Positions 7,466 through 47,491 are shown, numbered from the stretch's first letter. The stretch is DNA of 64,000 nt from an uncultured Candidatus Saccharibacteria bacterium (GCA_964398775.1 CAYNND010000003.1:3879-67878), one strand, 5' to 3'. Notes: generated from the sequence alone by a model not told the origin. A program made the numbers and translations.

Positions 7466-8035
7466 ATGATTGCGCATATTGCAGGCACTGTCACTTCAGT
7501 CTCACTCACACACACCGTTCTTGATGTTCACGGTGTCGGTTATCTCATTGCCGCACCTCAATCAACACTCGCAACGCTCATCGTAGGAAAAAATGCATCA
7601 CTCAAGACATACCTAGTTGTTCGCGAGGATGCACTCGACTTATATGGGTTCGGGGAAGAACGTGAGCGTGATTTTTTCATACTCTTGCAGACTGTTTCAG
7701 GTGTTGGCCCAAAGTCAGCTCTTGGCATTATGGACAAAGGACACTTCGCACGAACACGAAGTGCCATCGCCCAAGGAGATGTCACCTATCTTGTCAAAGT
7801 ACTTGGCATTGGTAATAAAACAGCACAGAAACTCATTGTTGAGCTGCGTGACAAACTTGGTGCAGAAGTACTCGACGCAACTGCTCCAACTGACGCAGAT
7901 GCGCTTGAAGCACTGACTGTCCTCGGGTATTCACTTGATGAAGCACGAGCGGCACTCAACGCAGTTGAATCAAATATAGAAGGCACCGAGTCACGCATAA
8001 AAGCAGCATTGAAAAATTTAAATAGACGAATATGA
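7466..8035 (+). CDS. ruvA: Holliday junction DNA helicase RuvA
   Basis: 189 aa. N-terminus MIAHIAGTVTSVSLTHTVLDVHGVGYLIAAP (OB fold). Tandem HhH region (GVGPKSALGIM, GIGNKTAQKLIVEL) and a C-terminal RuvB-binding domain. Confidence 0.85.
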   Translation: MIAHIAGTVTSVSLTHTVLDVHGVGYLIAAPQSTLATLIVGKNASLKTYLVVREDALDLYGFGEERERDFFILLQTVSGVGPKSALGIMDKGHFARTRSAIAQGDVTYLVKVLGIGNKTAQKLIVELRDKLGAEVLDATAPTDADALEALTVLGYSLDEARAALNAVESNIEGTESRIKAALKNLNRRI

Positions 8036-9282
8036 AGCAGCATATAAAAAAAGCACTGAAGCCATTCCTCCCGTGGTACCACTGGGCGCTCCCGCGCATC
8101 GGTGCCCTGCGCTACGGGTTCCCGGCACGCAACATACACATCATTGCGGTGACAGGTACTAAAGGTAAATCGACAACCACAGAACTCATCGCAGCAATCC
8201 TCCGTGCAAGCGGTGCAAGGGTTGCTGTTTCAAACTCGGTTCGCTTTTCGATTGCAGATACTACCGTCAGCAATACCATGCGCATGTCCACACCCGGCAG
8301 ATTCTTTCTTCAGAAATTTCTCCGTGACGCACACTGCGCGGGATGTACCTATGCGGTCATTGAAACAACATCAGAAGGTGCTCGGTTTTTCAGACACCAT
8401 GCTCTCTCGATGAATGCGCTTGTTTTCACAAACCTTGCCCCAGAACACATCGAATCCCACGGCTCATTTGAGCACTACAAGCAGGCAAAACTCTCAATTG
8501 TCCGCGAGCTTGCTCGTTCTGCTGAGCGTCCTCGTATACTTGTCGTAAACGGTGATGACCCACACGCTTCAGATTTTTTGAACTTTCCAGTTGATATAAA
8601 GAAAACATATTCCCTGCGCGATGTACCTGGATATGAAGCTGATGATTGCCATATACGTTTTGCATGGGGAGACGCAACCATCGAGAGTATCCTTCCCGGT
8701 GAATTTAATCTGTATAACATGCTCGCAGCAGCAACACTCGCGCGCGAACTACACATTCCCGATGAAACAATCGCAAAAGGTATATCTTCAGTGGAAGAGA
8801 TACCCGGACGTTCACAGTTTGTGAGAGAAGGACAAGCATTTGATGTTGTAGTTGATTATGCGCATACAGTTGAATCACTTGATGCGCTTTACCGCGCATT
8901 TGGTACTCGTCGAAAGATTGCGGTGCTCGGTAAGTGTGGCGGTCACCGCGATAAAGCGACTCGCCCACTCATGGCCGCTAAAGCAGAAGAGTATTGTGAC
9001 GTAGTCATTCTGACTGATGAAGACCCTTATGATGAAGACCCGCGTACAATCGTCGACGATATGGCTGCGGGGATGAAATCGAAGCCAGTTATTATCATGA
9101 ACCGCCGCGAAGCAATTGCCCATGCGATTTCAATTGCACAACCAGGAGATGCGATACTCCTCACCGGAAAAGGAACGGACCCTTCAATCTGCCGTGCAAA
9201 TGGTACAGAAGAGCCATGGAATGAATTTGCAATTGCCCGCGAGCTGGTCAGTGCACATCTCAAACAGCATCCCCGTGCATAG
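8032..9282 (+). CDS. Mur ligase family protein (MurE/MurF-like) lacking the usual N-terminal domain
   Basis: 416 aa. P-loop IAVTGTKGKSTTTELIAAIL only ~40 aa from the N-terminus. Mur-ligase middle-domain region VIETTSEGARFFRHHALSMNALVFTNLAPEHIESHGSFEHY resembles MurE. Start ATGA overlaps the ruvA stop. Confidence 0.65.
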   Translation: MKQHIKKALKPFLPWYHWALPRIGALRYGFPARNIHIIAVTGTKGKSTTTELIAAILRASGARVAVSNSVRFSIADTTVSNTMRMSTPGRFFLQKFLRDAHCAGCTYAVIETTSEGARFFRHHALSMNALVFTNLAPEHIESHGSFEHYKQAKLSIVRELARSAERPRILVVNGDDPHASDFLNFPVDIKKTYSLRDVPGYEADDCHIRFAWGDATIESILPGEFNLYNMLAAATLARELHIPDETIAKGISSVEEIPGRSQFVREGQAFDVVVDYAHTVESLDALYRAFGTRRKIAVLGKCGGHRDKATRPLMAAKAEEYCDVVILTDEDPYDEDPRTIVDDMAAGMKSKPVIIMNRREAIAHAISIAQPGDAILLTGKGTDPSICRANGTEEPWNEFAIARELVSAHLKQHPRA

Positions 9283-9322: not shown

Positions 9323-10225
9323 GTGAAAGACTTTCTCGCCGCAGTCTTTGTAGTCATAGTACTAATAGTTATTTTCATTGTGCTTGGCGGTGCCATGAGC
9401 TCGCTTGGATCTACATTTTCTCTTGGTGGCTGGTACCACAAATGGTCAGTCTCCCAGCCAGGAGGTGGAACACATCTAACTATCAGCGTCTCAGAAGAAG
9501 AGCTGTGGACTCCAGCTACAAAAGGAATTACGGGTATATCACCGTTCAAAAACAAAGTCGCTTTTGACACGATTGATCATGACCCGCAGCATGAAAACCC
9601 TCATGAGGAATACCTCACCATTCGTGCAAGCGTGCAAAATGAAGGGACTATTTCGTTACGTGGCTGGTCTATTGAAAGTTATGTATCACGGACGCGCATA
9701 CCACTCCCGAAAGGAGTCCTACTCTTTGCACTTGGTAGAACAAATGCAGTCGTGCATCCGGTACTTGCACCAGGTGAGTTTGCATACATAGTAACTGGCA
9801 ACTCGCCACTTGGGGACTCATTTCATACAAACTCGTGTACTGGGCAACTTGCTACATATGCGCCATTTACTCCCCCACTTTCACAAGTGTGCCCCGCGGT
9901 CGGAGATGTTGTACCACCTACTGTCGAAAATTTGCGCGTCTATGGCGAGCAGTGTATTGAGTACCTCCAGTCGCTGAGTTCTTGTGAAATCCCTGGGAAG
10001 AATGTGCCGAAGGATTTACTCCCACTCTGCCGTGCGCTTATTGAAAAAGAGATTACTTATAATCGCTGCATTGAACGAGAATACAAAAAGTATGGTTTTA
10101 AAGTGTTTAACCTCGGTGGATGGTATCTCTATCTAGAAAGCCCTGCGGAAGTGTGGAGGAATAAGTACGATGTGATTCGACTACTTGACGCTGATGGTCG
10201 CGTCGTCGACGTACTATCGTATTAG
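9323..10225 (+). CDS. Hypothetical membrane-anchored extracytoplasmic protein (possible lamin-tail-like beta-sandwich segment)
   Basis: 300 aa. N-terminal TM helix AAVFVVIVLIVIFIVLGGA. The segment ISLRGWSIESY...LAPGEFAYIVTGNSP loosely resembles lamin-tail domains. No firm family assignment. Confidence 0.4.
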   Translation: MKDFLAAVFVVIVLIVIFIVLGGAMSSLGSTFSLGGWYHKWSVSQPGGGTHLTISVSEEELWTPATKGITGISPFKNKVAFDTIDHDPQHENPHEEYLTIRASVQNEGTISLRGWSIESYVSRTRIPLPKGVLLFALGRTNAVVHPVLAPGEFAYIVTGNSPLGDSFHTNSCTGQLATYAPFTPPLSQVCPAVGDVVPPTVENLRVYGEQCIEYLQSLSSCEIPGKNVPKDLLPLCRALIEKEITYNRCIEREYKKYGFKVFNLGGWYLYLESPAEVWRNKYDVIRLLDADGRVVDVLSY

Positions 10226-12469: not shown

Positions 12470-13720
12470 CTACCACAGGCACGTTTTGAAAATACAGAGC
12501 GATGTACCTGTCTCATCAGCTTGGTTTGTGATGCGAAAGCCGTCTGTATCAGGAGTTTTTTTCGGCTTAAATATACAACTTGCACGCGCAACGACTTTGC
12601 GACTTGCATAACAGTCAATAGCAAAGACCGTCGAACGGAGTGGTAGTTTCACCTCCACAGTTCCAAGTGGCAGCTTTCGAGAATTAAACCCCCTCCCTTC
12701 TGTGGTCATTTTACCGCTGTACATATTTCCACATGACCACTCGATGGTAACCGTATGTGCGTCACTACGCTGCACGCAGCGCATCATTGGTTTTTTTCGC
12801 TCTGGTTCCTCTTCCTCAGTAAGAGTATCATCTACATACAAATCGGCCGCGGTCTTGGCATTTGATACTCCTGACTGCACCCCAGTATTCATCCCAGTAG
12901 CGCTCGTACTTATGCTATTTGTAGTTGGATATTGTTGTTGTGTGTACGGGTTTTGCTGTGGCTGTGTTTGATACTGTGGTGATTGTTGCATCTGCTGTTG
13001 CGTTTGGGGTTGCTGATACTGTTGCGCTGGTGTAGTCGCCCATTGTCCATCTTCTTGTGCGCCTGTCGGCATGATGTTTTGGACAACACCTTCAAGTGGT
13101 GTCCCACGAGCTGCTTCTTGAAGTATTTGACCTGTCGCAGTATGCAAAACTCCTCCAGGTGTTTGTATATTGGCGCCATTCTTGAGGAACGTCTGCAACA
13201 TGGTACGGACGCCAGGGTCAGTAATCTGCGCAATACCTGAACTTGAGTAGCCAGGACCCCATGCTGCGACTGCTTGTCGATTATCGACATGAAACTTATT
13301 TCCATTGTAGTATCCGAGTCCACCAATGCAGCGATTCTTGCAGCAGAGCCCTGCAAGCAGTAGCTGCCCAAAACGTTGTGCATTTCCTTTGACGACAACA
13401 TCAACTGCCCGCCCCTGCATGTGCTGGCTTTGTGATGCACCTCCAACTGAGGCGTTGTGCTGCGGTGAACGATATCCTGAGGTTACAGTGCATGCAGTAT
13501 TTTGGTTTGTGCGAATAAGCTGCTGAACATCTCCTCCCATCGCTGCGCATGCATTTATAACAATATCTGACGTGTACGTGTCGGCACCTAGCAACTTAGC
13601 TCCGTGCGTACCAGAAACTTCTTGCGGGCATGCAGGATTTTGAGCAGACCCAGCAGCATAGGCAACAGAAGTTGAGTTGAGCGCGAAAAATACTAGTACA
13701 AATATTGATTTCATATGCAA
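12470..13720 (-). CDS. Secreted Peptidase_M15_3 (MepK/YcbK-like LAS metallopeptidase) with Q-rich linker and one copy of shared C-terminal domain A
   Basis: 416 aa. Signal peptide MHMKSIFVLVFFALNSTSVAYA. LAS motifs SGYRSPQHNASVGGASQSQHMQGRAVDVVV and GLGYYNGNKFHVDNR. Linker QQYQQPQTQQQMQQSPQYQTQPQQ. C-terminal MMRCVQRSDAHTVTIEWSCG...FAIDCY...ASC is domain A of the paralog family. Confidence 0.75.
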   Translation of the reverse strand: MHMKSIFVLVFFALNSTSVAYAAGSAQNPACPQEVSGTHGAKLLGADTYTSDIVINACAAMGGDVQQLIRTNQNTACTVTSGYRSPQHNASVGGASQSQHMQGRAVDVVVKGNAQRFGQLLLAGLCCKNRCIGGLGYYNGNKFHVDNRQAVAAWGPGYSSSGIAQITDPGVRTMLQTFLKNGANIQTPGGVLHTATGQILQEAARGTPLEGVVQNIMPTGAQEDGQWATTPAQQYQQPQTQQQMQQSPQYQTQPQQNPYTQQQYPTTNSISTSATGMNTGVQSGVSNAKTAADLYVDDTLTEEEEPERKKPMMRCVQRSDAHTVTIEWSCGNMYSGKMTTEGRGFNSRKLPLGTVEVKLPLRSTVFAIDCYASRKVVARASCIFKPKKTPDTDGFRITNQADETGTSLCIFKTCLW

Positions 13721-15246
13721 AAGTTAAATACGCACAGTTTTCGCGGCGCTTCAGTGGCGCCTGTTTTTTGCGCCCCGGTGACAAATGACTCATCTGCTGG
13801 TTTTTCTGCAGAGACAGTTATCGTGCACTGCGCTCTCCCGATGAGCGTTTCACCATCATAGCAGTTAATACCGAGCATCGTTGTTTTTGCAGGACGGACG
13901 CGAATTGAGCCCAGAGTATTACCTTTCGAAGAGAACCCTATACCTTCACTTCGGGTTGCCGTTCGGCCGCACGACCATGCAAGTGTTGGGGCCGCACCTC
14001 GCAGTATCTTCAGCGGAACACAGCGGATTTTTGCATCACCAAATGTTTTTATCGTACTTTTTTTCTTTTCAGTCGACGTTTCGTCATCTTTTACTCCAGA
14101 AACACTCCCCCCAAGAGGATCATAAAATGTAGTGTCTTTATTCTCTCCCGTTGCGCCTATTACTTTCTGCTCAGCTTTCTTTTGTGCCGTCACTTGTTTC
14201 TTTTTTTCTTCTTCCTTCCACGCATCATCCTTGGCGAATGGATTCTTCCCGCCATCTTTTGGAAGTGGCTTGTTTGGGTCTAGAAATGAAGGTTTTGCAT
14301 CTTTTTGGAGCCGGTCAAAATCTGATTGCTTCCATTGACTTGCTCCTGGGTTGTAATTGCTACTTTGTACGCCGGTCGGACTTCCTGATTGACCACTGCT
14401 TGGTTGTTGCGATTGACCGCTTTGCTGATAGGGCTGCTGCCCTTGCCCGAGAGCTGCAATTTGCTCTGCTGTTGGGCCTTGACCAGGGGCTAAGTTGCTC
14501 CCATCAACACAAATTGAACCGACTTGGGTAGCAGCACGAACAGCTCGCCTGTTTGGAATGAGCATCCCAGCTCCTTTCAACTGCTGAGCAGCTTGTGCCA
14601 TCTTGGCAGCACTCACAGAATCTTGATACTCTGCAGCAACGACAGGAATACCCTGCTGCACAAAATAATTATACTTACCGCAATCTCCATTTTTTGCGCA
14701 ATCTTCTTCGAGAACCATTGCTATATTTTGTCTGTACTGCGGATACTGTTGCAATAATTTTACCCATGCACCTTCATCGTTTTTTATGACAACCTTGAGG
14801 CCATATTTCTGCCCCATATCGACCATGAAGCGTAAATCTTCGGGGGTTACTTTCTCTGCAGTATTGTCCGGTTCAAATGCTTTAAATCCTCTTTGTGCAG
14901 CTTGTTGCAATAATCGCTCAGTTCGAGCTCTGCCAGCAGGATGCCGCGCGAAATCTACCCATGGCTCGTTCCAGCCACCTTCACTTGCAGAACCACGATT
15001 TCCAGTCGCTCCTGCAGGACAATCACCCTGACATCGACCAATGTTTGTATACGCGACAGGGAAGACTCCTGACGGTGCATTACACTTCGATGAGTCGACA
15101 CTGCATGCCGCAGTTGCACCCGCACAGTCGCACCCACCAAGGTTCCACCCAAATGAGCCACATTTATTTCCTGCAGGAGTATTTGCTGCATATGCAGGCA
15201 GTATGATGCATATGCTGAGCAGACATGCACTGACAAGCAATTTCAT
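13711..15246 (-). CDS. Secreted protein with TIM-barrel glycoside-hydrolase-like domain (tentatively GH114-like), S/Q/G-rich linker and shared C-terminal domain A
   Basis: 511 aa. Signal peptide MKLLVSACLLSICIILPAYA. Central region with FEPDN, KVVIKNDEG and VVAAEY segments, tentatively hydrolase-like. Low-complexity linker QGQQPYQQSGQSQQPSSGQSGSP. C-terminal KIRCVPLKILRGAAPTLAWSCG...GINCY...AQC is domain A. Confidence 0.55.
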   Translation of the reverse strand: MKLLVSACLLSICIILPAYAANTPAGNKCGSFGWNLGGCDCAGATAACSVDSSKCNAPSGVFPVAYTNIGRCQGDCPAGATGNRGSASEGGWNEPWVDFARHPAGRARTERLLQQAAQRGFKAFEPDNTAEKVTPEDLRFMVDMGQKYGLKVVIKNDEGAWVKLLQQYPQYRQNIAMVLEEDCAKNGDCGKYNYFVQQGIPVVAAEYQDSVSAAKMAQAAQQLKGAGMLIPNRRAVRAATQVGSICVDGSNLAPGQGPTAEQIAALGQGQQPYQQSGQSQQPSSGQSGSPTGVQSSNYNPGASQWKQSDFDRLQKDAKPSFLDPNKPLPKDGGKNPFAKDDAWKEEEKKKQVTAQKKAEQKVIGATGENKDTTFYDPLGGSVSGVKDDETSTEKKKSTIKTFGDAKIRCVPLKILRGAAPTLAWSCGRTATRSEGIGFSSKGNTLGSIRVRPAKTTMLGINCYDGETLIGRAQCTITVSAEKPADESFVTGAQKTGATEAPRKLCVFNFCI

Positions 15247-15301
15247 TACTCTATTCTATCGTGTTTTTTACTCTAGCTGACCATCCGTCCACATCCAACA
15301 C

Positions 15302-16735
15302 TTATATTTCATCAAGAGGATCTTCGAAGATTGTCTGTACTTGGTTTGTTTGTCCTGTATTATTTTTTTGTTTTGCTTCATCATACAATACATCCTCTTC
15401 GATAAGTGTTACCGTCTCTGTTTTTGTGAAAACGTCAGTACCAGTTTTTGCTTTACACTTTATCGTAAATGTTTCTTCATTATCAATGGACGCAGATGAT
15501 ACTCGCCCACTCTTATCCGAAGAAGCGACTCCAGGACCTGTCACTGTACAGGAGCGCGCGTTTTGTGATGACCATACAACCTCTACAGTCTCTCCTGGAT
15601 ATACCTCTTGTGGCTCTACACTGAAACGCACAGATAACTTGGCGGTTGGTTTTGCTACTTGTATTTCGCAGGATTGCTTACCGACGACAACCGCACCTTT
15701 TTTACACTGGACGGTGTAGCGAGTTTTTTGTTGCGGTTTTACAACTGAAGAACCACTTGCTTCACCCTTTGTGTTAAGCGGCGCAAATGAGTTTGAAGAA
15801 CTCCCTACTGAGCGTGTCCCTGCAGGACACTCCCATTCAATACTTACTGATTCTCCTTTCGTAACTGACTCGGGATCACAAGTAAGCGTTATGCCACCTT
15901 CTGCTCCAGGGTCAGTAATTGCTGACTCCTCAGGTTTTTTTTGAAATGGATCTTGTTGCTTCATCTCAGGTGGCATACCTTGTTCCCCAGAGCCAGCCCC
16001 AGGCTGTCCTCCTCCGCTTGGTTGTTGTCCCGTCTGTGGACTGCCTTGCTGGTCTTGACCGCCTGGTGGTTGCTGCCCACCTCCTGGTGGTTGCTGCCCG
16101 CCCTGTCCTGGGTCTGCAATCGGACCACCACCTTTACACGGTGGAGTAGAAGGACTGCATGCCGCCTGACGATGTTCAATACACTGAATATGAGGACCCC
16201 AGTACGGGAAATGGAGCTGGTATTGCCCGGCAAGTCGCTTCAACACATCAACGCAGTTAACGTCAACTGCAAGTCCGTACTGATGGCAGGACTTCCCCGC
16301 AGGAGCACAACCACTCCTTCCACCACCACACATAGATGCCTGTTTTGCAGCACTTCGATAGGCACTGTTTATGCGAGGCGAGCAGCCAGAACGTGCTGCT
16401 GCATCGAAAAGCTTTGAAAGTCTGCACGCCAGACCTGAGTTGATTCCCCCTTGCCCATTCGGACCTGAAGGTACGCATTCGTTTTGTCGAGTGCATCCAT
16501 ATTTTGCGAGTGCTTGGAAGGGGTCTGTATCGCAACCACCATTTAAAATTCCCTTGTCTGAGGCTGTCGCATTGCTCATATCAATTCCCATTGAATTTAC
16601 TTGCGCGGTCTGCATTGATTCATCAGAAAACTCTTGAGTGAGGGTCACCAAAGATACGTCACCTCGAAGTGAGGCCGCGCCAACGACAAGCACTATTGCG
16701 AGCGTCGAAAAAAACCATGCGGTTTTATGCATCAC
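15302..16735 (-). CDS. Secreted VanY/M15B-like D,D-peptidase domain protein with G/Q/P linker and C-terminal A+B module
   Basis: 477 aa. Signal peptide MMHKTAWFFSTLAIVLVVGAASL. Motifs SAYRSAAKQ, SCHQYGLAVDV and LHFPYWGPH. Linker GGQQPPGGGQQPPGGQDQQGSP. C-terminal LTCDPESVTKGESVSIEWECP...YTVQCKK...QSC plus LSVRFSVEPQEVYPGETVEVVWSSQNARSCTV...FTIKC. Confidence 0.7.
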   Translation of the reverse strand: MMHKTAWFFSTLAIVLVVGAASLRGDVSLVTLTQEFSDESMQTAQVNSMGIDMSNATASDKGILNGGCDTDPFQALAKYGCTRQNECVPSGPNGQGGINSGLACRLSKLFDAAARSGCSPRINSAYRSAAKQASMCGGGRSGCAPAGKSCHQYGLAVDVNCVDVLKRLAGQYQLHFPYWGPHIQCIEHRQAACSPSTPPCKGGGPIADPGQGGQQPPGGGQQPPGGQDQQGSPQTGQQPSGGGQPGAGSGEQGMPPEMKQQDPFQKKPEESAITDPGAEGGITLTCDPESVTKGESVSIEWECPAGTRSVGSSSNSFAPLNTKGEASGSSVVKPQQKTRYTVQCKKGAVVVGKQSCEIQVAKPTAKLSVRFSVEPQEVYPGETVEVVWSSQNARSCTVTGPGVASSDKSGRVSSASIDNEETFTIKCKAKTGTDVFTKTETVTLIEEDVLYDEAKQKNNTGQTNQVQTIFEDPLDEI

Positions 16736-16780
16736 TCTATTCTACCAAGTATTTATCGTCCTGCGTCGACATACCCACAG

Positions 16781-18082
16781 CTACAATGCATCTGCAGGGT
16801 ATTCACTGTCTTGCGTATCTGTGTAAAAACGAACTGTCGCTGTCCGTGTAATCTTCTGTTGTTTTTGCTGACCAATACAAGTCAGTGTATATGTGACGTC
16901 GCGAGTAATCTCTTCCGTCGTGACACGACCTGACATGTCTTGCGAAGACACATCAGGGCCAGACAATGTACAGCTTTTTGCGTTAGCACTACTCCATGTT
17001 AGCTCAACGCGCTCTCCCGGACGAACCTCACTTGGGCGGGCCGATAGTCTGACACTCAGTGTTTGTTTTTGAGCGATGACCGGTATCGTACATGAACCTG
17101 TCGCTACTACTTTATTTGCCTTCACACAGGAAATGGTAAATGTTGTTTTTGATTTTGGCGCAACCTTCAAAACACCTTCCATTTTATTTTTTGTGTTGAA
17201 TGATGCCAGGTTCGGCTGAGCATGACTTCGTGATTGAGAAGCAGCGGGACACTTCCATGAAATTGAGGCTGAACTCCCCGGTGTAATTGTTGCAGGGGTG
17301 CACTCTATTTCAATATCGCCGCTCTCCTCTACAGGCGCTTTTGATTCAGCAACATCAGAGGCTTTCCCGTTTTGAGACGCAAGGAAATTATTTGGATTCT
17401 GACCAAATGATGTGCCCTGGCCTTGTTGAGTACCAGTTTGCTGTTGCGGCGTTTGCCCTGAAGCGGGAGGCTGCCCTTGCTGGCCTGTCGCATCCTGACC
17501 TTGTCCAAAGGATGCAGTATCTTGACCAGATGGAGGTGTCTGTGCCTGACATGCTGCATCGCAGCTACCCATTTGAAAATGCACTGGATCTCTCCCTCGA
17601 ATAGTAGGTGGATTAAAAATGCCGTACTGCGAACTAATTTGGTGTAGTTTTGTATAAATAGCAGCAGGACCTACATCTACTGCGAGACCTCTTCCATGAT
17701 ATGAACGGCCAGGTGGGGCTGCCAAACCACCACCGTTTTGATACCGCGCATACGCAGCGGCTTGTTCTTGAACACTTCGAAACGAATCATTTATGCGCGC
17801 ACGCACTCCTGTTTGCTGTTCTGCTGCTTGAATAGCTTGCATGACACGTTGACCAAACTGAGGGTTAAGTTGACGCATACGTCCGCATGAGCGACCACCG
17901 CATCGCGATTCAAGAAATTGAATCCAGTCTCCGTTTTGCGCGCCGAGCAGGTTCGTATCGCCTTGCATGAGAATTGTATCTTTGGGCAAGTTCAATGATT
18001 TAATTATTTCTGCGTGCGCAAAAGAAGAGGATATACACGCAATGCAAACAAATATTGATATATACGCAGTGGTGTATTTCAT
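16781..18082 (-). CDS. Secreted VanY/M15B-like D,D-peptidase domain protein with Q/G/T linker and C-terminal A+B module
   Basis: 433 aa. Signal peptide MKYTTAYISIFVCIACISSSFAHA. Motifs NDSFRSVQEQ, SYHGRGLAVDV and DPVHFQMG. Linker QGQDATGQQGQPPASGQTPQQQTGTQQGQG. C-terminal IECTPATITPGSSASISWKCP...FTISCVK...GSC plus LSVRLSARPSEVRPGERVELTWSSANAKSCTL...YTLTC. Confidence 0.7.
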   Translation of the reverse strand: MKYTTAYISIFVCIACISSSFAHAEIIKSLNLPKDTILMQGDTNLLGAQNGDWIQFLESRCGGRSCGRMRQLNPQFGQRVMQAIQAAEQQTGVRARINDSFRSVQEQAAAYARYQNGGGLAAPPGRSYHGRGLAVDVGPAAIYTKLHQISSQYGIFNPPTIRGRDPVHFQMGSCDAACQAQTPPSGQDTASFGQGQDATGQQGQPPASGQTPQQQTGTQQGQGTSFGQNPNNFLASQNGKASDVAESKAPVEESGDIEIECTPATITPGSSASISWKCPAASQSRSHAQPNLASFNTKNKMEGVLKVAPKSKTTFTISCVKANKVVATGSCTIPVIAQKQTLSVRLSARPSEVRPGERVELTWSSANAKSCTLSGPDVSSQDMSGRVTTEEITRDVTYTLTCIGQQKQQKITRTATVRFYTDTQDSEYPADAL

Positions 18083-18085
18083 AAG

Positions 18086-19630
18086 TTATTCGACAGTTAG
18101 TTCTGCTTCTTGTATAGCACGCGCACCGGAATCAGTTATGCACGAAAGTGTAAACGTGTGTGTGCCGCGCAGCGCAAGTGGTGGCGTCTCAATACTTCCC
18201 TCTATTCCTTCTTCTTTAAAACCTCGTGCGCGAAGCTCGCACGATTCGACCCTAACAGCACTCCATTCAATGAACGCAGTTTCTCCTCGGCTCACAACAC
18301 TCGGTTCAATGCGCAGAGATAACACTGGAGCTGCAGTGTTTTTTTGTTGCTTTTTCCCGGGGATGCGCGGCACATACTCGCATGTCGCCTGGTCAATGAT
18401 ACGTTGATTACGAAGACATTGTACAGTGTAGACAGTTTTCTTTTTTGCACTGACAAGCGATGTACCTACAAGCGAGCCGCGTGTTGAGAACTTACTGTCA
18501 TGCGGTGCTGAAAGTGCACGCGAAGTTGAACTGCCTGTACACGACCAGGATACAGAAGTTTCTCCGCATTCGATAGTTGCGTATGATTCCTCTTCAGCAA
18601 CAGCTCTATCTGTGACATTAAAGAAGCCATTTTGAGTGTTATATGCTTGCGCGGCTGGTTGGTCTTGATACTGAGGAAATCCCGATGTCTGCTGAGGAGA
18701 TTGCTGCTGTGATGGCGTTTGCTGTTGTGATGTCTGTTGTGATGATGGTGACTGCTGCCCACCCCAAGAACCTGGCTGCGCAGTATCCCAAGAACCTGGC
18801 TGTGATGCGTATTGGTTTAAAGTACTTTGGTATGCCTGCTGGTTGAGCGAACCATCAGGGTTAAATACATTTGTTGCAAGCGTCCCAAAGCCTGATGTTG
18901 CAAAAGAGGAAGTCAGCGAACCAGGAAGTGGCGGGCGTGTCCCGAGAGCAACAGCAACCCCGCGCTGTAGTGCAGGATATCCACGCACCATGAGGTTTAC
19001 TGCATCGGCACCTGTTGAGCCGCACTGAACCGGAACTTTGTTTACCGAAAGCGCCCAAACTGCACCACGACCAGCACATGAAAGTTGCATGCTAAACACA
19101 GACGAAGGATCCGCCGAGAGCAGAGCTCTGTGTGTTTGCGATGGCATGAGTTGTAACAACATCCCAATCGCAGCCTGTCTATATGAATCTGAAGTTGCAC
19201 GTTCAATTGGGTTTAAAAAACGAGCATTGTTTCCATACCATGCTGCAGCGCTCAACATATGACTTCCTCTTCCAAGTGAACCGGGTAATCGCCTGGTTTC
19301 TGCTTGGAGCACCTCAAAGAGGACCGGGTCATGCTGGCGGGCAATAGGAAGATACGCAGCAATACCGCGGTTAAATTGTTCTTCACTCAGCGCATATGAA
19401 CCTTTATATGCTGCGGCGTGGCCATTACAATTTGGTCGTGCTCCGCACTCTTGATGGAATACAGCGATTCCGACCAAACTTGCTGTGCGTTGCTGACAGT
19501 TGTATTGCTTACATGCCACACCGCCCACATACTGGATTTGCTGAATAGGGTCTTGCGAGAGTGTATTTGCCGAGAGCTGTCCGATACTCAAAAAAAAGTA
19601 CGCCACACAGATAGAAACGAGTAGTCTCAT
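18086..19630 (-). CDS. Secreted protein with unknown N-terminal domain, S/Q-rich linker and C-terminal A+B module
   Basis: 514 aa. Signal peptide MRLLVSICVAYFFLSIGQLSA. N-terminal domain of ~300 aa with no recognised motif. Linker SQQTSQQQTPSQQQSPQQTSG. C-terminal TIECGETSVSWSCTG...YTVQCLRNQRIIDQATC plus LSLRIEPSVVSRGETAFIEWSAVRVESCEL...FTLSC. Confidence 0.6.
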   Translation of the reverse strand: MRLLVSICVAYFFLSIGQLSANTLSQDPIQQIQYVGGVACKQYNCQQRTASLVGIAVFHQECGARPNCNGHAAAYKGSYALSEEQFNRGIAAYLPIARQHDPVLFEVLQAETRRLPGSLGRGSHMLSAAAWYGNNARFLNPIERATSDSYRQAAIGMLLQLMPSQTHRALLSADPSSVFSMQLSCAGRGAVWALSVNKVPVQCGSTGADAVNLMVRGYPALQRGVAVALGTRPPLPGSLTSSFATSGFGTLATNVFNPDGSLNQQAYQSTLNQYASQPGSWDTAQPGSWGGQQSPSSQQTSQQQTPSQQQSPQQTSGFPQYQDQPAAQAYNTQNGFFNVTDRAVAEEESYATIECGETSVSWSCTGSSTSRALSAPHDSKFSTRGSLVGTSLVSAKKKTVYTVQCLRNQRIIDQATCEYVPRIPGKKQQKNTAAPVLSLRIEPSVVSRGETAFIEWSAVRVESCELRARGFKEEGIEGSIETPPLALRGTHTFTLSCITDSGARAIQEAELTVE

Positions 19631-19655
19631 TCGAAAAGTATACCATCCAAAAGTA

Positions 19656-20912
19656 TCACTCGACGTATATCTCCTTCTCTATATGCACTTCTGAATCATC
19701 CAGCGCTTTGCAACGTAGCTGTATGCGCGAACGTCCTCGTATCAATAGTGACTCAGTGTCAACAGAACCCACAGGGCCTTTTTCTGAAATACCTTGTCCA
19801 CTGACGACACACTGCTTCACCTTGTATGCTGACCATGTCACATGCACATGCCCCCCACGTCGCACGCTCTCTGTGCTTATTTCAAGCTTAAGCTGCGGTC
19901 TGTTGATTGTGCTTTGTATTGCGCCAGGAATAACACATGATGCAAATGCCACCTTTTTATTTTGTGTGTAGCACTCGATTGTGTACATAGTCTTTACTCG
20001 AGGAGTCACTTGAATCTCACCGCGTACCGCAACTGCACCTCTGAGCGCTCTGCTGAGTGGTTTCGAACGCCCTCGCGCTGATGTAGTTCCTGTACCACAT
20101 GACCACTGGATAGATGTTTTAGTACAGATAAGCGATAGTTTTTCTGGCGCATCATCCTCACCTGTTGAGTCCTCGGGGACAAAAGGTCCTTTAGGATTTT
20201 TTGTGTCAGTTACACCGGTCGGTCGAGTTTCGCCTGGCTGTTTTTCTTTTCCTGGCTGCTGCGTATTTTGCAGTGGTGTACTGCCCGTTGAACCAGCACT
20301 TCCGCTTTGCACACCAGTTGCAGCAGTACCTGCCCCATCTTGAGCATTCCCCGTGAGCACATTGCCATACCCTGTATTTCCATTTCCTGCAGGATCAACA
20401 AGACCTTGATTTGACGGCGTAAAGCTTACATTTTTCCCTGAAGCGAGTGCACTCGCTTGGGCGTCAGTGCAGCTACTGCAGATCGTTGTATTTACATCAA
20501 GTTTTTGAGGCCTCCCTCGAAATGCCCCGCCCGTGTCATGCACATATCCAATCACATTTTGTACTGTATGTTTTTGCCTATCGAGCGCTGAAGTATATGT
20601 AATTGTACCGAGATTGAAATACTTACCATAGTTACTTGAGTCAGATGCGAGCGTCACATATTTTGAACGACCTGAACGCACATCATCGAGCGAACGCGGA
20701 ACTCGCTGCCCATCAAGTCCTGGGCGAGATGTTTCAACACAGCCTTCCATAGAGGTGCGGCACCCCGGAGCGTTGTGGGGTACATAAAAAGTTATGATTC
20801 TATCTGATGCTGTACAGGGCGCCGCTTGTGTACAAGCGTGTACAGACTGCGGAAGCAGTACTGCAAGAATGAGAGCAGAAAGGACGGCGCTCATGCGTAC
20901 AGTATACTTCAT
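19656..20912 (-). CDS. Secreted 3D-domain (MltA/Rpf-like lytic-transglycosylase-associated) protein with G/T-rich linker and C-terminal A+B module
   Basis: 418 aa. Signal peptide MKYTVRMSAVLSALILAVLLPQSVHA. 3D-domain signature GYVHDTGGAFRGRPQKLDV preceded by Asp-containing strands. Linker GNGNTGYGNVLTGNAQDGAGTAATGVQSGSAGSTGS. C-terminal LICTKTSIQWSCG...YTIECYTQNKKVAFASC plus LKLEISTESVRRGGHVHVTWSAYKVKQCVV...IQLRC. Confidence 0.7.
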   Translation of the reverse strand: MKYTVRMSAVLSALILAVLLPQSVHACTQAAPCTASDRIITFYVPHNAPGCRTSMEGCVETSRPGLDGQRVPRSLDDVRSGRSKYVTLASDSSNYGKYFNLGTITYTSALDRQKHTVQNVIGYVHDTGGAFRGRPQKLDVNTTICSSCTDAQASALASGKNVSFTPSNQGLVDPAGNGNTGYGNVLTGNAQDGAGTAATGVQSGSAGSTGSTPLQNTQQPGKEKQPGETRPTGVTDTKNPKGPFVPEDSTGEDDAPEKLSLICTKTSIQWSCGTGTTSARGRSKPLSRALRGAVAVRGEIQVTPRVKTMYTIECYTQNKKVAFASCVIPGAIQSTINRPQLKLEISTESVRRGGHVHVTWSAYKVKQCVVSGQGISEKGPVGSVDTESLLIRGRSRIQLRCKALDDSEVHIEKEIYVE

Positions 20913-20916
20913 ATGT

Positions 20917-22398
20917 TTATCGTACTTCTACTTGGACAGATTTTGAAATCGTATCTCCGTCTGTGGTTCTGCACTCGAGCACATACTCTGCTGTTCCTCG
21001 TGTATAGAGTTCATCAGTACTCGCAGAACCTTCGGTCCCCTCTTCAGAAAGGCCTTCGCCGAACACGACACATGAGTCAACACGGACAGCGGCCCAAGAA
21101 ATCATCGCCGACTTCCCCCTTCGAACCTCTGTGGTATCGGCATTTATTGTCAAAACTGGTTTTATTGTTGTTCCAGCGCTCGGTGCAGTTTTTTGAGGAG
21201 TAAAAACACACGATGCTTCACTAATAATGGATTGTCTTTTTAAACACTGTACGGTGTATGTTGTTTTTCGTGAAGGTGCAACTGCAAGTGATCCGATGAG
21301 TGCACCACGTGTTTTAAATTGTGCATCTACAGGCTTTGAAATACCTCGAGAAAGTGTTGCGTCACTCGGGCAACTCCATTCAACAAGCTTGTCTTCACAC
21401 GTAAGCAAATCATCGTCAGAGACTGTTTCATCTTCTGAAACTACTTCAGTATTCTGAAACGGAGTTTGCTGAGAAGGGTTTGTTGGTTGAAATGGGTTCT
21501 GGTACGGATTTTGCATAAATGGCTGGCTTGGTTGTTGCTGCCCTGCTTGTTGCGTACCGCTTTGTTGTGACCCTGTCTGGGGTGACGGTTGTGCCCACTG
21601 GCCTTGTGATGCAAATGGATTTTGCCCTTGATTGTCCTGTGGGTTACCTCCCATACCTTGGATTAGGCCGCCGAGTGGGCTATTGTTCCCCTCTATTGCT
21701 GTGCCGAGACTTTTCAATTGTCCCACATCGGCTGGAACTGAGCCTGGAGGGATTTGCCCATACGCCATGGCTGTTCCCTGGGCGAGTTGTTCGCATGTGT
21801 AGTTTACGAAGCCAACTTCAATACGTGCAGAAGAGAGCGCGATCTTCGCCATCATATCCTTATCATTTGGGTTAAATACCTGATTGGGCTGAATTCCGAC
21901 CCAGCTCGCTACGGTGTTTGCATAACTTGTCGGATTATTTCCACCATGACATGAAGGTGCCCACACTTGTTTTAATTCAATTAGCGTACACCGCGGTCGG
22001 GAACCGCCACCCCTATTGCATGCATCTGGTCTTCCTCGAGTACACATATCTCGAATGAGTGCGACATGCGCTGCAATTCCGTGCACAACAGAGGGAAAAA
22101 TTGCTGTACGATTGTTATTACTAAAACCTTGGCTTCCGAATTGCCGTGCAATAGGATTGTATACTTGCGCACCTGGGTTACGCGTCTCACATGCAAGCTT
22201 GCATTGCCCATTTCCTCTTTTTGTTGCCATGAATTGCTGACACCACTGCATGAACGCAGGAGACAACCCTGCGACATCTTGATTTGCTGCATGTACTGGC
22301 GTCACATAAAACGCACCAAAAAACAGACATGCGACAAAAATAGAACATGCGATCGCAGTTCGCTGCACTACGACGTATTGTGTGCGCAGCGTGTTCAT
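20917..22398 (-). CDS. Secreted protein with unknown Cys-containing N-terminal domain, Q/P-rich linker and C-terminal A+B module
   Basis: 493 aa. Signal peptide ...AIACSIFVACLFFGAFYVTPVHA. N domain of ~230 aa with no recognised motif. Linker QGQWAQPSPQTGSQQSGTQQAGQQQPSQPFMQNPYQNPFQP. C-terminal LLTCEDKLVEWSCPS...YTVQCLKRQSIISEASC plus LTINADTTEVRRGKSAMISWAAVRVDSCVV...YVLEC. Confidence 0.6.
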   Translation of the reverse strand: MNTLRTQYVVVQRTAIACSIFVACLFFGAFYVTPVHAANQDVAGLSPAFMQWCQQFMATKRGNGQCKLACETRNPGAQVYNPIARQFGSQGFSNNNRTAIFPSVVHGIAAHVALIRDMCTRGRPDACNRGGGSRPRCTLIELKQVWAPSCHGGNNPTSYANTVASWVGIQPNQVFNPNDKDMMAKIALSSARIEVGFVNYTCEQLAQGTAMAYGQIPPGSVPADVGQLKSLGTAIEGNNSPLGGLIQGMGGNPQDNQGQNPFASQGQWAQPSPQTGSQQSGTQQAGQQQPSQPFMQNPYQNPFQPTNPSQQTPFQNTEVVSEDETVSDDDLLTCEDKLVEWSCPSDATLSRGISKPVDAQFKTRGALIGSLAVAPSRKTTYTVQCLKRQSIISEASCVFTPQKTAPSAGTTIKPVLTINADTTEVRRGKSAMISWAAVRVDSCVVFGEGLSEEGTEGSASTDELYTRGTAEYVLECRTTDGDTISKSVQVEVR

Positions 22399-22401
22399 AT
22401 A

Positions 22402-25400
22402 TTACTCACCTACGTATTCTTCTCCTGGAGCCTCCTCCGTGCCATCACTTGACACTTCGATAGTAACAGAGTCTGACGCGCGAGTTTTTCTATCTGGTGC
22501 AATACACTCAACGCGGAACTGACTAGTCTCGTATAGATTACCAGTGACATAGCCTGAGCGTCCGACCTCTTTGAAACATTTCGGACTGTCTTTACCAAAC
22601 GTGTCACATCCCGGTCCGTAGACTACACATGATGCAGTGTTTTGACTTCTCCATGTAACTTTTACTGAAGTACCTTTCGGTGCTGCAGGCGGTTCGGCGG
22701 AAATTGATACAGTTGGACGAGCTCCTGAGGTCGTTGTTGTCGTAGTACTAACACCGTTCACCTCAACTCGGCACGAGCTTCGTGCAATTTCTTTGTTGAA
22801 CTTGTCTCGGCAGCGAACGACATAGGTAGCATCACGGATTGGCTTAACATTTGCAGACCCCTCGGCATCTCCACCCGTTCCAAACTCACCATCTTCAGTA
22901 CTTGTTCCAACAGACTTTTCTGTTTTCGCTGGGCATGACCAAACGACAGCTGCTTCTTCACCAGCTTTAATGGTCTCTGGATCACACGACATATCAGCCT
23001 CACCAACTTCTGTCGTATCATCTTCCTCTTCCTCGTCCTCTTCATCAGCAGGTTTTACGAAAACTTTTACAGGCGGCGTACAGACATTTGTTCCAATTTC
23101 ATTCGCCACCTTTATCGTATACGTAGTTGTACGCTCAGGAGACACATCAACAGAGCCCCCATCGACGACCCCGAGACTTCCTTTTTCGGGCGCGCCTTTT
23201 TCATCGGTCGTTGTAAAGTTGATGATAGTTTTTAGTGTTCCCTTACCAGTGACGTCCCATGTAATTGTCGCACTCTCTCCAGACTTGATCGTCTTTGGAG
23301 TGATAGATACAGAATCTTCAGTACACTTTGGTGCTTCAGTCGGCGTGTTCTTTCCATAGAGATCATCCCACCACCATGGCTTCTGGTTTTGGTTGTTATT
23401 ATTATTTTGCGGTTGCTGTTGCTGCTGAGCAAGTGCTTTAGCAATTTCTCCAAGCGCTTTACTTGGGTCTCCACCGCCGCCACCAGGTGGGCTGCCACCG
23501 CCTGGAGGATTACCCCCTCCTGGAGGGTTCCCGCCACCTGGTGGTTGGTTTCCAGGAGGAGTGTTCCCTGGAGGAGTTGCTGGTGCTGCCTTACAATTAC
23601 CTTGTCCAGGGGTATCACATGGGTTCCCCTTATCATCAACACCTTTCTCTTTTGCTTTTTCTTGATCTTCTTTTCGGCAGACCATGACCGATTGTCTACC
23701 CTCACCAGATTCAACCGCACAGACTGTATAACCTTTTGTCTTTATAGCACTGATATCTTCCTGGTTCATCACAGGAACAGTACTGTATCCCATACGCTTA
23801 CACATATCGTGGCATTTTTTTCTGGCTTCAAGTGCCTTATCCTTACTCTGGCATTCACCATTGGTTTTATCGGCTTTAGTCTTGTCTTCACCAGTAACTT
23901 TTGGGGTATACACACCCCACTCTACTGGCATAACAGAATCTTTGTGTGTTCTGTCTTCAAACTGCTTTACACATTTTGGATCAAGTTTTGGTTTTGCGAC
24001 AGCACCACCAGAAGTTGTCTTGCACTTTTCTTCCATGATTTTCTTGTTCTCTTGATCACAACGGCCTGTCAAAGTATCTGCCGTTTTTGTGACAGGAGTT
24101 TTAGTTTTGTCTGGCGCTGGTTTTGGGCACTCTTTTGGTTGACCCGGAAGACCTGCAACACATACTGCTGCAACTTGTCTACTGCCAATTGAAACCCTGT
24201 CAACAGCACACCAGAAACAGAATGTGTTTCTGAGCCAAGAACCAAAACGATTGAAAAATCCTTGTCGCTCTTTCGGAACACGCTCACTGCCGCCAATTAT
24301 ATCTTCTGTAAGACCTCCAGTGACGGACTCACGAGGTCGATTCCAGAGATTTCGGACCTCATCAGGTGTCAGGTCATTCATATTCTCGATTCGATACCCG
24401 CGCTTTATATTTGCACGCGCCTCTGCTTCTCGCGCTGCGCGCTCCAGAGTCTCCATATCTTCCTTTGAATAGACTCCGTCTTTGCCGAGTTCATCTGCAA
24501 GCTGGTCAAACGCTTCATCGACCTCAAGATCTTCCACACCAAATGCATTTGGGTCTGCTTTCAGAGCATTTGGGTCATTTTGAAATGCGTCTGGATCACT
24601 TTCCAAATCTTCTTTCTCACCGTATTTTCCGATAAAGCCATCGTAGTTCAAAGCTCCGGTACCCGTTGCAGTCTTTGATCCTCTCTTTAAATCAGTATTT
24701 GTGTTCGTGTCTGTCGTCTTGCCGCTTCCATCACCGAGTGGATTCTCGAGTGACTCATCGTTACCTCCTTCATCTGAAGTTGTATCACTGTCATCAGTCT
24801 CTCCATCGTCTTCACCATTAGATACATCTGAATAATCACCATTTACATTTACAAAAACTTTTGTTTTACATGTACTAAATCCACTTCTATTTTCGACTTT
24901 CAACGTATAGGTAGTCGTCTTCGTGGGAGAAACGGTTGCTGTACTGCCCGTTGCCTCACCTACTCCAGGACTAATAGTCACGCCACCTGGGGCACCCTGC
25001 CCACCTGAGGCTTCTGGTGTTCCTTCTGAGACAAGCCAAGAAAGTGTTGTTGATTCGCCACTTTTTACTGGCTTTGTGCCTGACGCTGCAGAAAAGTCAC
25101 TGCACTTCGGCACCTTTGTGTATCGAGGGTCCACGTACGGAGGAGTATCCCCACTGCCACCCTGATCACCACCACCTCCTCCGCCACCACCAAGTGCCTT
25201 AAGCATCTGACCAATCGCATCCATAAGTCCACCGGCACCACCTGCGAGACCCTGTGCTGCAGGTTTAATCATACAAGTCTGTCCACCTTCTGCATTCGCG
25301 AAGCATGATATTGGTGTACACGTTTTCTTTTGTTCTTTTGTTGCTTCGGTTTCAACACCAATAGAACCACCAGTTGAGAATGAGTTTTTATCACATGCCG

Positions 25401-25578
25401 CACCAGTTACTGATTGCGCAACTTGTCGCGTCATAGACCGAGGCATCCCTGCTGTCTGGTCTATTGCTCCGATAATGAGTACGAGAAGTACCATGAGACC
25501 GCCGAGCTGCGCGCCATGTCTGAGCGCAGCGCTCGTTTGGCTCTGTGATGAGTCTGACATAATGTAATAGTAACGCAC
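22402..25578 (-). CDS. Giant membrane-anchored surface protein with Gly-rich segments, two PKD/Big-like beta-sandwich repeats, Cys-rich central region, PPGx repeats and C-terminal A+B module
   Basis: 1058 aa. N-terminal TM LGGLMVLLVLIIGAI with no cleavable signal. Two repeats of the type SGES.T.SW.V....TTTY(T/I)(L/I)KV.N..G...C...V.V. Cys-rich block CHDMCKRMGY...VCAVESGEG...VCRKED. Repeats PPGNTPPGNQPPGGGNPPGGGNPPGGGSPPGGGGG. C-terminal DMSCDPETIKAGEEAAVVWSCP...YVVRC...SSC plus VSISAEPPAAPKGTSVKVTWRSQNTASCVV...FRVEC. Confidence 0.65.
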   Translation of the reverse strand: MRYYYIMSDSSQSQTSAALRHGAQLGGLMVLLVLIIGAIDQTAGMPRSMTRQVAQSVTGAACDKNSFSTGGSIGVETEATKEQKKTCTPISCFANAEGGQTCMIKPAAQGLAGGAGGLMDAIGQMLKALGGGGGGGGDQGGSGDTPPYVDPRYTKVPKCSDFSAASGTKPVKSGESTTLSWLVSEGTPEASGGQGAPGGVTISPGVGEATGSTATVSPTKTTTYTLKVENRSGFSTCKTKVFVNVNGDYSDVSNGEDDGETDDSDTTSDEGGNDESLENPLGDGSGKTTDTNTNTDLKRGSKTATGTGALNYDGFIGKYGEKEDLESDPDAFQNDPNALKADPNAFGVEDLEVDEAFDQLADELGKDGVYSKEDMETLERAAREAEARANIKRGYRIENMNDLTPDEVRNLWNRPRESVTGGLTEDIIGGSERVPKERQGFFNRFGSWLRNTFCFWCAVDRVSIGSRQVAAVCVAGLPGQPKECPKPAPDKTKTPVTKTADTLTGRCDQENKKIMEEKCKTTSGGAVAKPKLDPKCVKQFEDRTHKDSVMPVEWGVYTPKVTGEDKTKADKTNGECQSKDKALEARKKCHDMCKRMGYSTVPVMNQEDISAIKTKGYTVCAVESGEGRQSVMVCRKEDQEKAKEKGVDDKGNPCDTPGQGNCKAAPATPPGNTPPGNQPPGGGNPPGGGNPPGGGSPPGGGGGDPSKALGEIAKALAQQQQQPQNNNNNQNQKPWWWDDLYGKNTPTEAPKCTEDSVSITPKTIKSGESATITWDVTGKGTLKTIINFTTTDEKGAPEKGSLGVVDGGSVDVSPERTTTYTIKVANEIGTNVCTPPVKVFVKPADEEDEEEEDDTTEVGEADMSCDPETIKAGEEAAVVWSCPAKTEKSVGTSTEDGEFGTGGDAEGSANVKPIRDATYVVRCRDKFNKEIARSSCRVEVNGVSTTTTTTSGARPTVSISAEPPAAPKGTSVKVTWRSQNTASCVVYGPGCDTFGKDSPKCFKEVGRSGYVTGNLYETSQFRVECIAPDRKTRASDSVTIEVSSDGTEEAPGEEYVGE

Positions 25579-25621
25579 GCTCTAAAAAAAGCACGCGATT
25601 ATGCACCAATACTGTGTAGAA

Positions 25622-38098: not shown

Positions 38099-38107
38099 AA
38101 AAAAATT

Positions 38108-38368
38108 TTATACAATATCAATGAGTATATTGTGCGGTCCCATTTCCATATTTATTTCAGAGAGAATTTCTTTTTTTTGTTCATGGAGTGCATACCGAGC
38201 TGCTGCTGGGAGGTGCACCCGCGCACGGTTCTCCTTTATGGTGATAGATGAGGTATGTATTGTGACACCAAATGTTTTTTGTAACACTTTCTGAATTATT
38301 TCTTTTCTGTATCTCTCAGAAACCCCTATATTAGTGTACCGACTTAGTAAAGCCTTTAAATCCTGCAT
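38108..38368 (-). CDS. DUF721-like small protein of the dnaA-dnaN locus
   Basis: 86 aa. Located directly downstream of dnaN, as is typical for DUF721 genes. Weak sequence-level support. Confidence 0.4.
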   Translation of the reverse strand: MQDLKALLSRYTNIGVSERYRKEIIQKVLQKTFGVTIHTSSITIKENRARVHLPAAARYALHEQKKEILSEINMEMGPHNILIDIV

Positions 38369-38369
38369 A

Positions 38370-41286: not shown

Positions 41287-41290
41287 GTGA

Positions 41291-41605: not shown

Positions 41606-41627
41606 AGAGTCAGCGTATGATGCAGCG

Positions 41628-43231: not shown

Positions 43232-43232
43232 A

Positions 43233-47487: not shown

Positions 47488-47491
47488 AGTA

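Follow-up and report, generated by a model that had tools for sequence, protein, structure and literature searches.

A nine-gene chromosomal array joining diverse predicted envelope-cleaving domains to shared Ig-like C-terminal modules in an uncultured bacterium

In Firmicutes, hydrolases that share one anchoring module are well known, and the Cwp proteins of C. difficile are partly clustered in one locus. Bacteria of the Candidate Phyla Radiation (CPR; Patescibacteria) are mostly thought to be attached to other microbes, and outside Saccharibacteria the molecules that open envelopes are largely undescribed. Bdellovibrio secretes an MltA-like enzyme that cuts the septum of its prey (PMC10127604), predicted secreted peptidoglycan hydrolases of the CPR predator Vampirococcus were proposed to attack the host wall (PMC8080830), and epibiotic growth of Southlakia requires peptidase and lysozyme homologues (as cited in PMC12102498). 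Here we analysed a stretch of 64,000 nt (hereafter the window; coordinates are counted from its first letter) deposited as an uncultured Candidatus Saccharibacteria bacterium (GCA_964398775.1, CAYNND010000003.1:3879-67878), and identified an array of nine co-oriented minus-strand genes at 12470–28012 (approximately 15.5 kb), whose products are named p1–p9.

All array products share one layout: a signal peptide or anchor at the N-terminus, then a head that varies, a linker and one to four cysteine-braced immunoglobulin (Ig)-like modules. By sequence and fold comparison, at least six heads belong to families predicted to cut cell-envelope polymers: M15A-like (p1), M15B/C (p3 and p4), MltA/YuiC-like (p6), Enc34-type (p7) and GH114 (p2). 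A preliminary description of this DNA had pointed to four peptidoglycan-cleaving heads within 12470–20912. That interval holds six minus-strand open reading frames (ORFs; p1–p6), including p2 and p5, neither of which was mentioned there. All the motifs quoted for 12470, 15302, 16781 and 19656 (these being low-coordinate, 3′ gene ends) are present in the minus-strand ORFs, and the metal or catalytic residues singled out are conserved in orthologues.

The linkers of p1–p7 span 77–141 aa, of which 50–72% are Q, P, G, S, T or N. Alignment of the C-terminal 200 residues revealed tail A in all nine proteins (C..W.C...G..V.P...T.Y...C....C) and tail B in p3–p9 (P..V..G..V...W.....C.V.G......G.....F.L.C). 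Hidden Markov models (HMMs) of the tails matched all nine array proteins at 1e-23 to 1e-33 and, among the six-frame ORFs of the window, nothing outside the array. The tail A and tail B HMMs cross-matched, indicating that the two tails are homologous, and extra copies detected with them bring the total to four modules in p8 (aa 170–237, 756–824, 860–938 and 954–1041) and three in p9 (aa 454–503, 604–690 and 716–794; p9 likely starts at M23, nt 27946). In an AlphaFold model of mature p5, built from an alignment of paralogue and homologue tails, both tails formed beta-sandwiches with a predicted local distance difference test (pLDDT) score of 96–98. Foldseek comparison of these tails with the PDB returned only generic Ig/PKD/FN3-type matches, headed by Ig repeats from the grappling-hook protein of Aureispira and a PKD domain from an archaeal S-layer. 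Among the 150 best p6-family representatives, 36 likewise terminate in a tail-B-like module, in most cases no more than about 12 residues from the C-terminal end, and the proteins ending in this way include giants of 1.7–3.6 kaa. The cysteine-braced Ig-like C-terminal module is a family missed by current libraries. Word-indexed homology searches yielded six matches for the tails and one each for the p5 and p6 heads; the exhaustive search of representatives was the informative one. Both p1 and p2 lack tail B and end instead in a short cysteine motif, LC[IV]F..C (Table 1), a type of terminus kept by orthologues (LCIFSHCLL, LCFLTFCL and WCIFTKCLW).

Pfam placed p1, p3 and p4 in M15-type families. 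The p1 head, with the motifs SGYRS (aa 81–85), SQHMQGRAVDV (98–108) and FHVD (143–146), scored above gathering for both Peptidase_M15_3 (5.9e-15, 55.8 bits against 23.2) and Peptidase_M15_2 (1.7e-8, 34.8 bits against 27). A BLASTP alignment with E. coli MepK (1e-6, 35% identity over 74 aa) covered all three motifs and set the putative zinc ligands H100, D107 and H144 (with D146) against the MepK motifs KSYHTKGQAMD and VHID. The ligand motifs are conserved in two orthologues, and the best PHROG match is an endolysin family (5e-18). p1 is not a MepK equivalog (37.7 bits against an NCBIfam cut-off of 185), and over this region its resemblance to the Streptomyces albus G zinc DD-carboxypeptidase 1lbu (4e-4, strong around the first two ligands) is no weaker than that to MepK. 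The MepK likeness proposed earlier is thus borne out at the level of family and ligands, whereas the label of 3-3 cross-link LD-endopeptidase is not established, because the equivalog score is far below cut-off and 1lbu is at least as close. These results assign p1 to the M15A-type LAS metallopeptidases, with intact ligands.

The p3 and p4 heads are paralogues (30% identical). p3 carries SAYRS..Q from aa 124, SCHQYGLAVDV at 149–159, and LHF followed by GPHIQCIEHR at 180–189, with R127, H151 and D158 as key residues and an ambiguous third histidine in GPHIQCIEHR; p4 carries DSFRS..Q from aa 99, SYHGRGLAVDV at 127–137 and DPVHFQ at 165–170, with R102, H129, D136 and D165-x-x-H168. Both exceeded the gathering threshold of 25 bits for Pfam VanY (PF02557), p3 at 8.1e-7 (29.3 bits, profile positions 6–81 of 132 only) and p4 at 9.6e-8 (32.3 bits), the matches being limited to positions 6–86, about the first two-thirds of the profile. 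p4 also matched a PHROG endolysin (1.3e-7), and the NCBIfam VanY models gave 16.8 and 21.8 bits for the two heads against a cut-off of 425. A profile built from p3, p4 and their orthologues was searched against PDB sequences and matched VanY (5hnm, 1.6e-6), LdcB-type LD-carboxypeptidases (4mph and 4jid, 2e-6; also 4ox3, 4ox5 and 4d0y) and the L-Ala-D-Glu peptidases Ply500 (2vo9, 3.5e-6) and LysB4 (1.3e-5). In these alignments, which span the Arg/Gln motif and S-x-H-x-x-G-L-A-V-D and end before the third ligand, the S-x-H-x-x-G-x-A-x-D ligands fall on SEHQLGLAVD in 5hnm and on the corresponding residues of 4mph and 4jid. The first two zinc-ligand positions are invariant in five sequences. In p4 the conserved DPVHF supplies a D-x-x-H (D165-P-V-H168), which we take to be like that of L-Ala-D-Glu peptidases such as Ply500. 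In p3 three histidines are conserved (LHF, GPH and EH, in the block LHFPY.GPHIQC[IV]EHR), with W, Y, S or C at position −3. Assignment of both heads to the VanY superfamily (M15B/C) on sequence similarity holds, but the DD-carboxypeptidase activity previously attached to them does not follow, because the E-values for VanY, LdcB-type enzymes, Ply500 and LysB4 are nearly equal.

The p6 head, with HDTGGAF at aa 125–131, KLDV at 137–140 and T41, D91, D126 and D139 as key residues, had been described as a 3D domain. Its score lies below Pfam 3D gathering (PF06725; E 0.039, 14.6 bits against 23.8), and 3D is the only recurrent Pfam family among p6 relatives (8 of 36, all sub-threshold). At normal thresholds, p6 matched nothing in Pfam, NCBIfam, PHROGs or a PDB sequence search; single-sequence PDB searches with the p4 and p6 heads gave no match, and a p6-family profile gave only noise against PDB sequences. 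The fold test was positive, with a double-psi beta-barrel that superposes on YuiC and MltA, and since the sequence searches stayed below threshold the placement of p6 rests on this fold. A weak hhalign alignment with E. coli MltA (E 0.05) put HDTGGAF..KLD on LDVGGAIKG..HFD, and thereby D126 and D139 on precursor D317 and D328, that is, mature D297 and D308; in the YuiC study, MltA D297/YuiC D151 is the sugar-binding aspartate and MltA D308/YuiC D162 the catalytic one (PMC4499186). Across 124 p6-family sequences, conservation is 100% for D126, 94% for D139 (the remainder being gaps), 98% for T41 and 63% for D91. At the level of fold and active site the earlier guess for p6 is thus right, with an MltA/YuiC-like lytic-transglycosylase barrel and matching aspartates, although its score leaves p6 outside Pfam 3D. 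Exhaustive searching of representatives with the p6 head recovered 276 clusters at E<=1e-3, sharing the pattern T.Y.P...EG..TS.P...G....TLDDVR.G.S.YVTLA.D.S.YG...HDTG.AF.GRPDK.D. The p6-type heads form a family of their own, of about 276 representative clusters, that current libraries miss. A Pfam scan of seven large p6-family proteins gave nothing useful. An uncultured marine virus encodes a 1003-aa protein with a p6-type domain (E 1.3e-9).

In p7, a match to the endolysin family PHROG_873 (7.8e-11) was accompanied, with a three-sequence profile, by matches to the Enc34 endolysin 7q47 (1.1e-4) and phage Gp29 9vvp (6.5e-4). W146, Y159 and E194 of p7 align to Trp79, Tyr95 and the catalytic Glu131 named for the Enc34 endolysin (PMC8943055), and are kept in a 36%-identical homologue. 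The p2 head matched Pfam Glyco_hydro_114 (1.1e-16, 61.2 bits against 27, profile positions 38–210 of 231), and its orthologue in the related contigs L003/L004 is likewise GH114. Pfam and PDB descriptions name this family endo-alpha-1,4-polygalactosaminidases, and p2 is accordingly predicted by family to be an exopolysaccharide enzyme, not a peptidoglycan enzyme. The p5 head had no match in Pfam (E<=10), PHROGs, NCBIfam or a PDB profile search; BLASTP against Slt70 was not significant, and comparison with the p7 head was also negative. Its AlphaFold2 model had pLDDT mostly <50, the head alignment being too shallow. An SLT/GH23 or Rpf-like transglycosylase was considered for p5, with HQEC...YKGSYALSEEQF presumably resembling SLT/Rpf motifs, and is not supported, for want of detectable similarity to Pfam families, Slt70 or the PDB and of a confident head model. 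Searches of p8 and p9 revealed no enzyme domain.

Adjacent array genes overlap or stand 3–55 nt apart. The array is flanked by holA/polA on one side and guaA on the other; upstream, holA overlaps p9, and downstream, guaA begins 9 nt past p1. Scanning the region for promoters and terminators gave sites no more numerous than in shuffled sequence. The gene content of the window is chromosomal (dnaA, dnaN, ruvABC, polA, guaA, aro genes, MurA, a MurE-like ligase and PBP1a). Relatives carrying the array are JGI metagenome contigs and one GenBank metagenome contig. The order p8-p7-p6-p5-(p4)-p3-(p2)-p1 is kept in the related contigs L004, L006 and L010, p4 being missing from L004 and L010 and p2 from L006; p8 orthologues are present in L004 and L006, and guaA comes after the array in L006 also. 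Because GC content is uniform across the array and equal to that of the flanks, and gene order is conserved in relatives, the array is chromosomal and vertically inherited, not mobile. For p1–p7, identity to the window sequence is 86–97% for heads, 71–84% for tails and 60–71% for linkers in L010; 76–89%, 46–77% and 37–50%, respectively, in L006; and 55–80% (p7 head 36%), 39–82% and 38–57%, respectively, in L004. Heads are thus more strongly constrained than tails. The sole match among species-representative genomes is a metagenome-assembled genome of Candidatus Kaiserbacteria (L001; 56% identity to the p6 head), and we infer that the source genome is CPR/Parcubacteria-like.

Several public gene calls for array orthologues in L003/L004 and L006 are N-terminally truncated (one p6 orthologue, for example, is called from MEGCVETS), and tblastn found intact heads upstream of the truncated calls; precomputed annotations therefore under-report the enzyme domains of the array. 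The p6 homologue of the Kaiserbacteria genome ends in a different, non-Ig C-terminus. Adjoining it, at 2804–4543 of L001, lies a gene for a 579-aa protein with a C-terminal tail-B-like module and, judged by eye only, an SLT-like motif, MESGGRYGINTNAGNG..GAYQM.

Table 1. Coordinates of the array genes and of other features in the window
Feature	Position (nt)	Strand	Length	Description
p1	12470–13720	−	416 aa	Signal peptide, M15A-like LAS metallopeptidase head (predicted) aa 68–147, Q-rich linker, tail A aa 310–385, LCIF..C
p1 C-terminal Cys motif	12470–12565	−		LCIFKTCLW
p2	13711–15246	−	511 aa	Signal peptide, GH114 head (predicted) aa 59–220, long linker, tail A aa 403–477, LCVF..C end
p2 C-terminal Cys motif	13711–13815	−		LCVFNFCI
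p3	15302–16735	−	477 aa	Signal peptide/anchor, VanY-type M15 head (predicted) aa 100–190, G/Q/P linker, tails A and B
p4	16781–18082	−	433 aa	Signal peptide, VanY-type M15 head (predicted) aa 80–170, linker, tails A and B
p5	18086–19630	−	514 aa	Signal peptide, orphan, partly helical head aa 21–260, linker, tails A and B
p6	19656–20912	−	418 aa	Signal peptide, MltA/YuiC-like double-psi beta-barrel head (predicted) aa 36–150, linker, tails A and B
p7	20917–22398	−	493 aa	Signal peptide, Enc34-type (PHA02564) lysozyme-fold head (predicted; W146, Y159, E194), linker, tails A and B
p8	22402–25578	−	1058 aa	N-terminal membrane anchor, low-complexity and Cys-rich regions, four Ig-like modules
p9	25622–28012	−	796 aa as listed	Signal peptide, Cys-rich orphan head, Q/P linker, three Ig-like modules
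AroA-AroK	4062–5858	−		EPSP synthase-shikimate kinase fusion protein
MurE-type ligase	8032–9282	+		
Lamin-tail protein	9323–10225	+		Secreted/membrane protein, lamin-tail domain sub-threshold
Class A penicillin-binding protein	34533–37073	−		C-terminal Big_7 Ig domain
YebC/TACO1 homologue	37559–38098	−	179 aa	Truncated
GC dip	38000–41700			GC 0.365; likely replication origin
Gene run with VirB4-like ATPase	42791–55172	−		Probable type IV secretion locus
VirB4-like ATPase	45640–47487	−		Monoderm CD1110 family
MurA	58541–60058	+		N-terminal HTH_3 domain

Taken together, the array products would be exported by Sec and act beyond the membrane as an envelope-degrading battery, in which flexible linkers let the different catalytic heads get to their substrate, while the common Ig-like tails may keep the heads on a shared surface or partner, for retention or targeting. 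Jointly, the array might cut peptidoglycan in its peptide as well as its glycan parts, together with a matrix polymer of the alpha-1,4-galactosamine type. As judged from the sequences, we see about an even chance that the main substrate is a foreign envelope (a host or neighbour cell, or matrix) rather than only the cell's own wall. We lean to a foreign target because of the GH114 head, the fast-evolving tails beside conserved heads, the patchy presence of members among close relatives and the published precedents. Several points weigh against it. The window encodes enzymes with which the organism makes peptidoglycan itself (MurA, a MurE-like ligase and PBP1a), and the host and epibiotic lifestyle of the lineage is an assumption taken over from the phylum. 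The heads of p5, p8 and p9 matched no identified family in the searches made. In the orthologue alignment, p3 lacks Asp or Glu at position −3 of any candidate third histidine, which puts its catalytic competence in question. Signal peptides were assigned by eye from the sequence, without a predictor (in the same way, the N-terminus of p8 resembles a signal anchor rather than a cleavable signal peptide), and the Foldseek matches of the tails in the PDB are generic Ig-like, none with a known wall- or host-binding function.

An alternative to which we give a lesser but appreciable probability is that these are housekeeping autolysins, which would remodel the cell's own wall for growth, septum splitting and the insertion of type IV pili and type IV secretion machinery, with the tails retaining them in the wall or surface layer. 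Autolysin roles are entirely plausible, because the organism synthesizes peptidoglycan for itself. In model bacteria, MepK and LdcB-type enzymes have autolytic or remodelling roles, as has YuiC (PMC4499186), and the array is stably syntenic in a housekeeping gene context, with pilB 3 kb away and the VirB4-like ATPase locus in the same window. However, GH114 has no role in peptidoglycan turnover, and approximately 15.5 kb would be a large outlay for a reduced genome. Tails that diverge faster than heads, and members such as p2 and p4 that come and go, would be atypical of core division enzymes. Amidases, the classical septum splitters, were not detected in the array.

It is unlikely that the enzymes are released for nutrient scavenging, digesting environmental or necromass peptidoglycan and exopolysaccharide to amino sugars, amino acids and muropeptides. 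The heads do span glycan and peptide bonds and include an exopolysaccharide hydrolase, and two sources describe CPR bacteria as generally limited in biosynthesis (PMC8080830, PMC12102498). Nevertheless, no uptake or recycling genes (transporters, NagZ or AmpG-like) were seen adjoining the array, the Ig-like tails suggest tethering and not free diffusion, and the presence of aroA-aroK, chorismate synthase and guaA in the window indicates a cell that is not extremely auxotrophic.

Quite improbable is the reading of the preliminary description in its exact form, in which an LD-endopeptidase, two DD-carboxypeptidases and a lytic transglycosylase make up a complete kit for dismantling walls. Its family-level matches are real, and unrelated envelope-cleaving domains (M15A-like, M15B/C-like and MltA/YuiC-like) do stand side by side, as opposed to redundant paralogues. 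Bond specificity, however, is not assignable from these matches, the general base of p3 is not evident, and carboxypeptidases trim stems and do not dismantle walls. The four chemistries reduce to three families, p3 and p4 being paralogues. The kit also leaves out five of the nine genes, and with them the GH114 and Enc34-like heads and the three unassigned heads, as well as the tail shared by all, and it contains no amidase. A prophage or mobile-element cassette for lysis or virion lysins, suggested by PHROG endolysin and tape-measure matches of p1, p3, p4 and p7 and by the viral p6-type domain, is highly improbable and was rejected on context and synteny, as no phage structural, integrase or holin genes lie nearby, the flanks are polA/holA and guaA, GC equals that of the flanks, and several related genomes share the locus and its order. 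A polymorphic-toxin system was also set aside, since the variable part is N-terminal, the genes have no small immunity-like ORFs between them and a domain for toxin delivery was not seen.

Beyond a battery directed mainly at foreign envelopes, we offer a more speculative and less likely proposal. In Parcubacteria-type CPR, the paired C-terminal Ig-like modules might form a device for display or targeting that is specific to the lineage, either recognizing host surfaces or giving a signal for sorting or anchoring, and carry swappable heads that breach the matrix and wall of a host cell where the two cells touch. On this view the conserved array would be a core locus of episymbiosis, with fast-evolving tails that track the host. 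The conserved, compact locus provides expressible candidates, its heads for bond-specificity assays and its tails for binding assays; even if the products are ordinary autolysins, the locus shows how wall remodelling is organized in a reduced genome.

Other features of the window are listed in Table 1. The VirB4-like ATPase scored 369 bits against a cut-off of 325, none of its seven largest neighbours matched a Pfam family, and the co-oriented run around it is probably a Patescibacteria-type type IV secretion locus, approximately 18 kb from the array. MurA (UDP-GlcNAc 1-carboxyvinyltransferase, 2e-100) is unusual in being fused, at its N-terminus, to a DNA-binding domain (HTH_3). In the MurE-type ligase, about 75 positions are missing from the start of the profile; it scored best, below cut-off, on the equivalog model for addition of meso-diaminopimelic acid; together with the class A penicillin-binding protein, it indicates that the organism builds its own peptidoglycan. 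The GC dip lies beside dnaN and dnaA and likely marks the replication origin, which would place the array about 10–25 kb from it. The lamin-tail protein (28.7 bits against 34.3) keeps its position relative to the array in L003.

The array is built from known families or folds; no description of its tail module, of the p6-type family or of the tandem organization in a CPR genome was found in the searchable literature. Compared with MepK (YcbK), M15_2/M15_3 proteins and the S. albus M15A enzyme, p1 shares SGYRS..N, S-x-H-x-x-G-x-A-x-D and H-x-D, but is much larger than MepK, with a linker, an Ig tail and an endolysin-type best PHROG match. p3 and p4 share the R..Q and S-x-H-x-x-G-L-A-V-D motifs with VanY, LdcB and Ply500, and differ from them in partial profile cover, in NCBIfam scores far below cut-off and in fusion to a linker and tails. 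Unlike YuiC (a B. subtilis Sps protein) and MltA (GH102), p6 is sub-threshold for 3D, bears the signature TLDDVR..YVTLA..HDTGGAF, has a first '3D' aspartate (D91) that is only 63% conserved, and is a domain fused to Ig-like tails here and embedded in proteins of 2–3.6 kaa elsewhere. p7 resembles the Enc34 ORF39 endolysin (PHA02564, 7q47) over approximately 65 residues, with the Trp, Tyr and catalytic Glu131 equivalents conserved, but it is chromosomal and has a signal peptide and an extra Cys-rich N-terminal part; the C-terminal transmembrane domain of ORF39 is absent, and Ig tails stand in its place. As a whole, the array is most like the pneumococcal choline-binding proteins and the C. difficile Cwp (CWB2) proteins, in which differing catalytic domains are carried on a common surface-retention module; in the array, this module is a C-terminal, Cys-containing Ig-like pair that follows a low-complexity linker and is a putative anchor.

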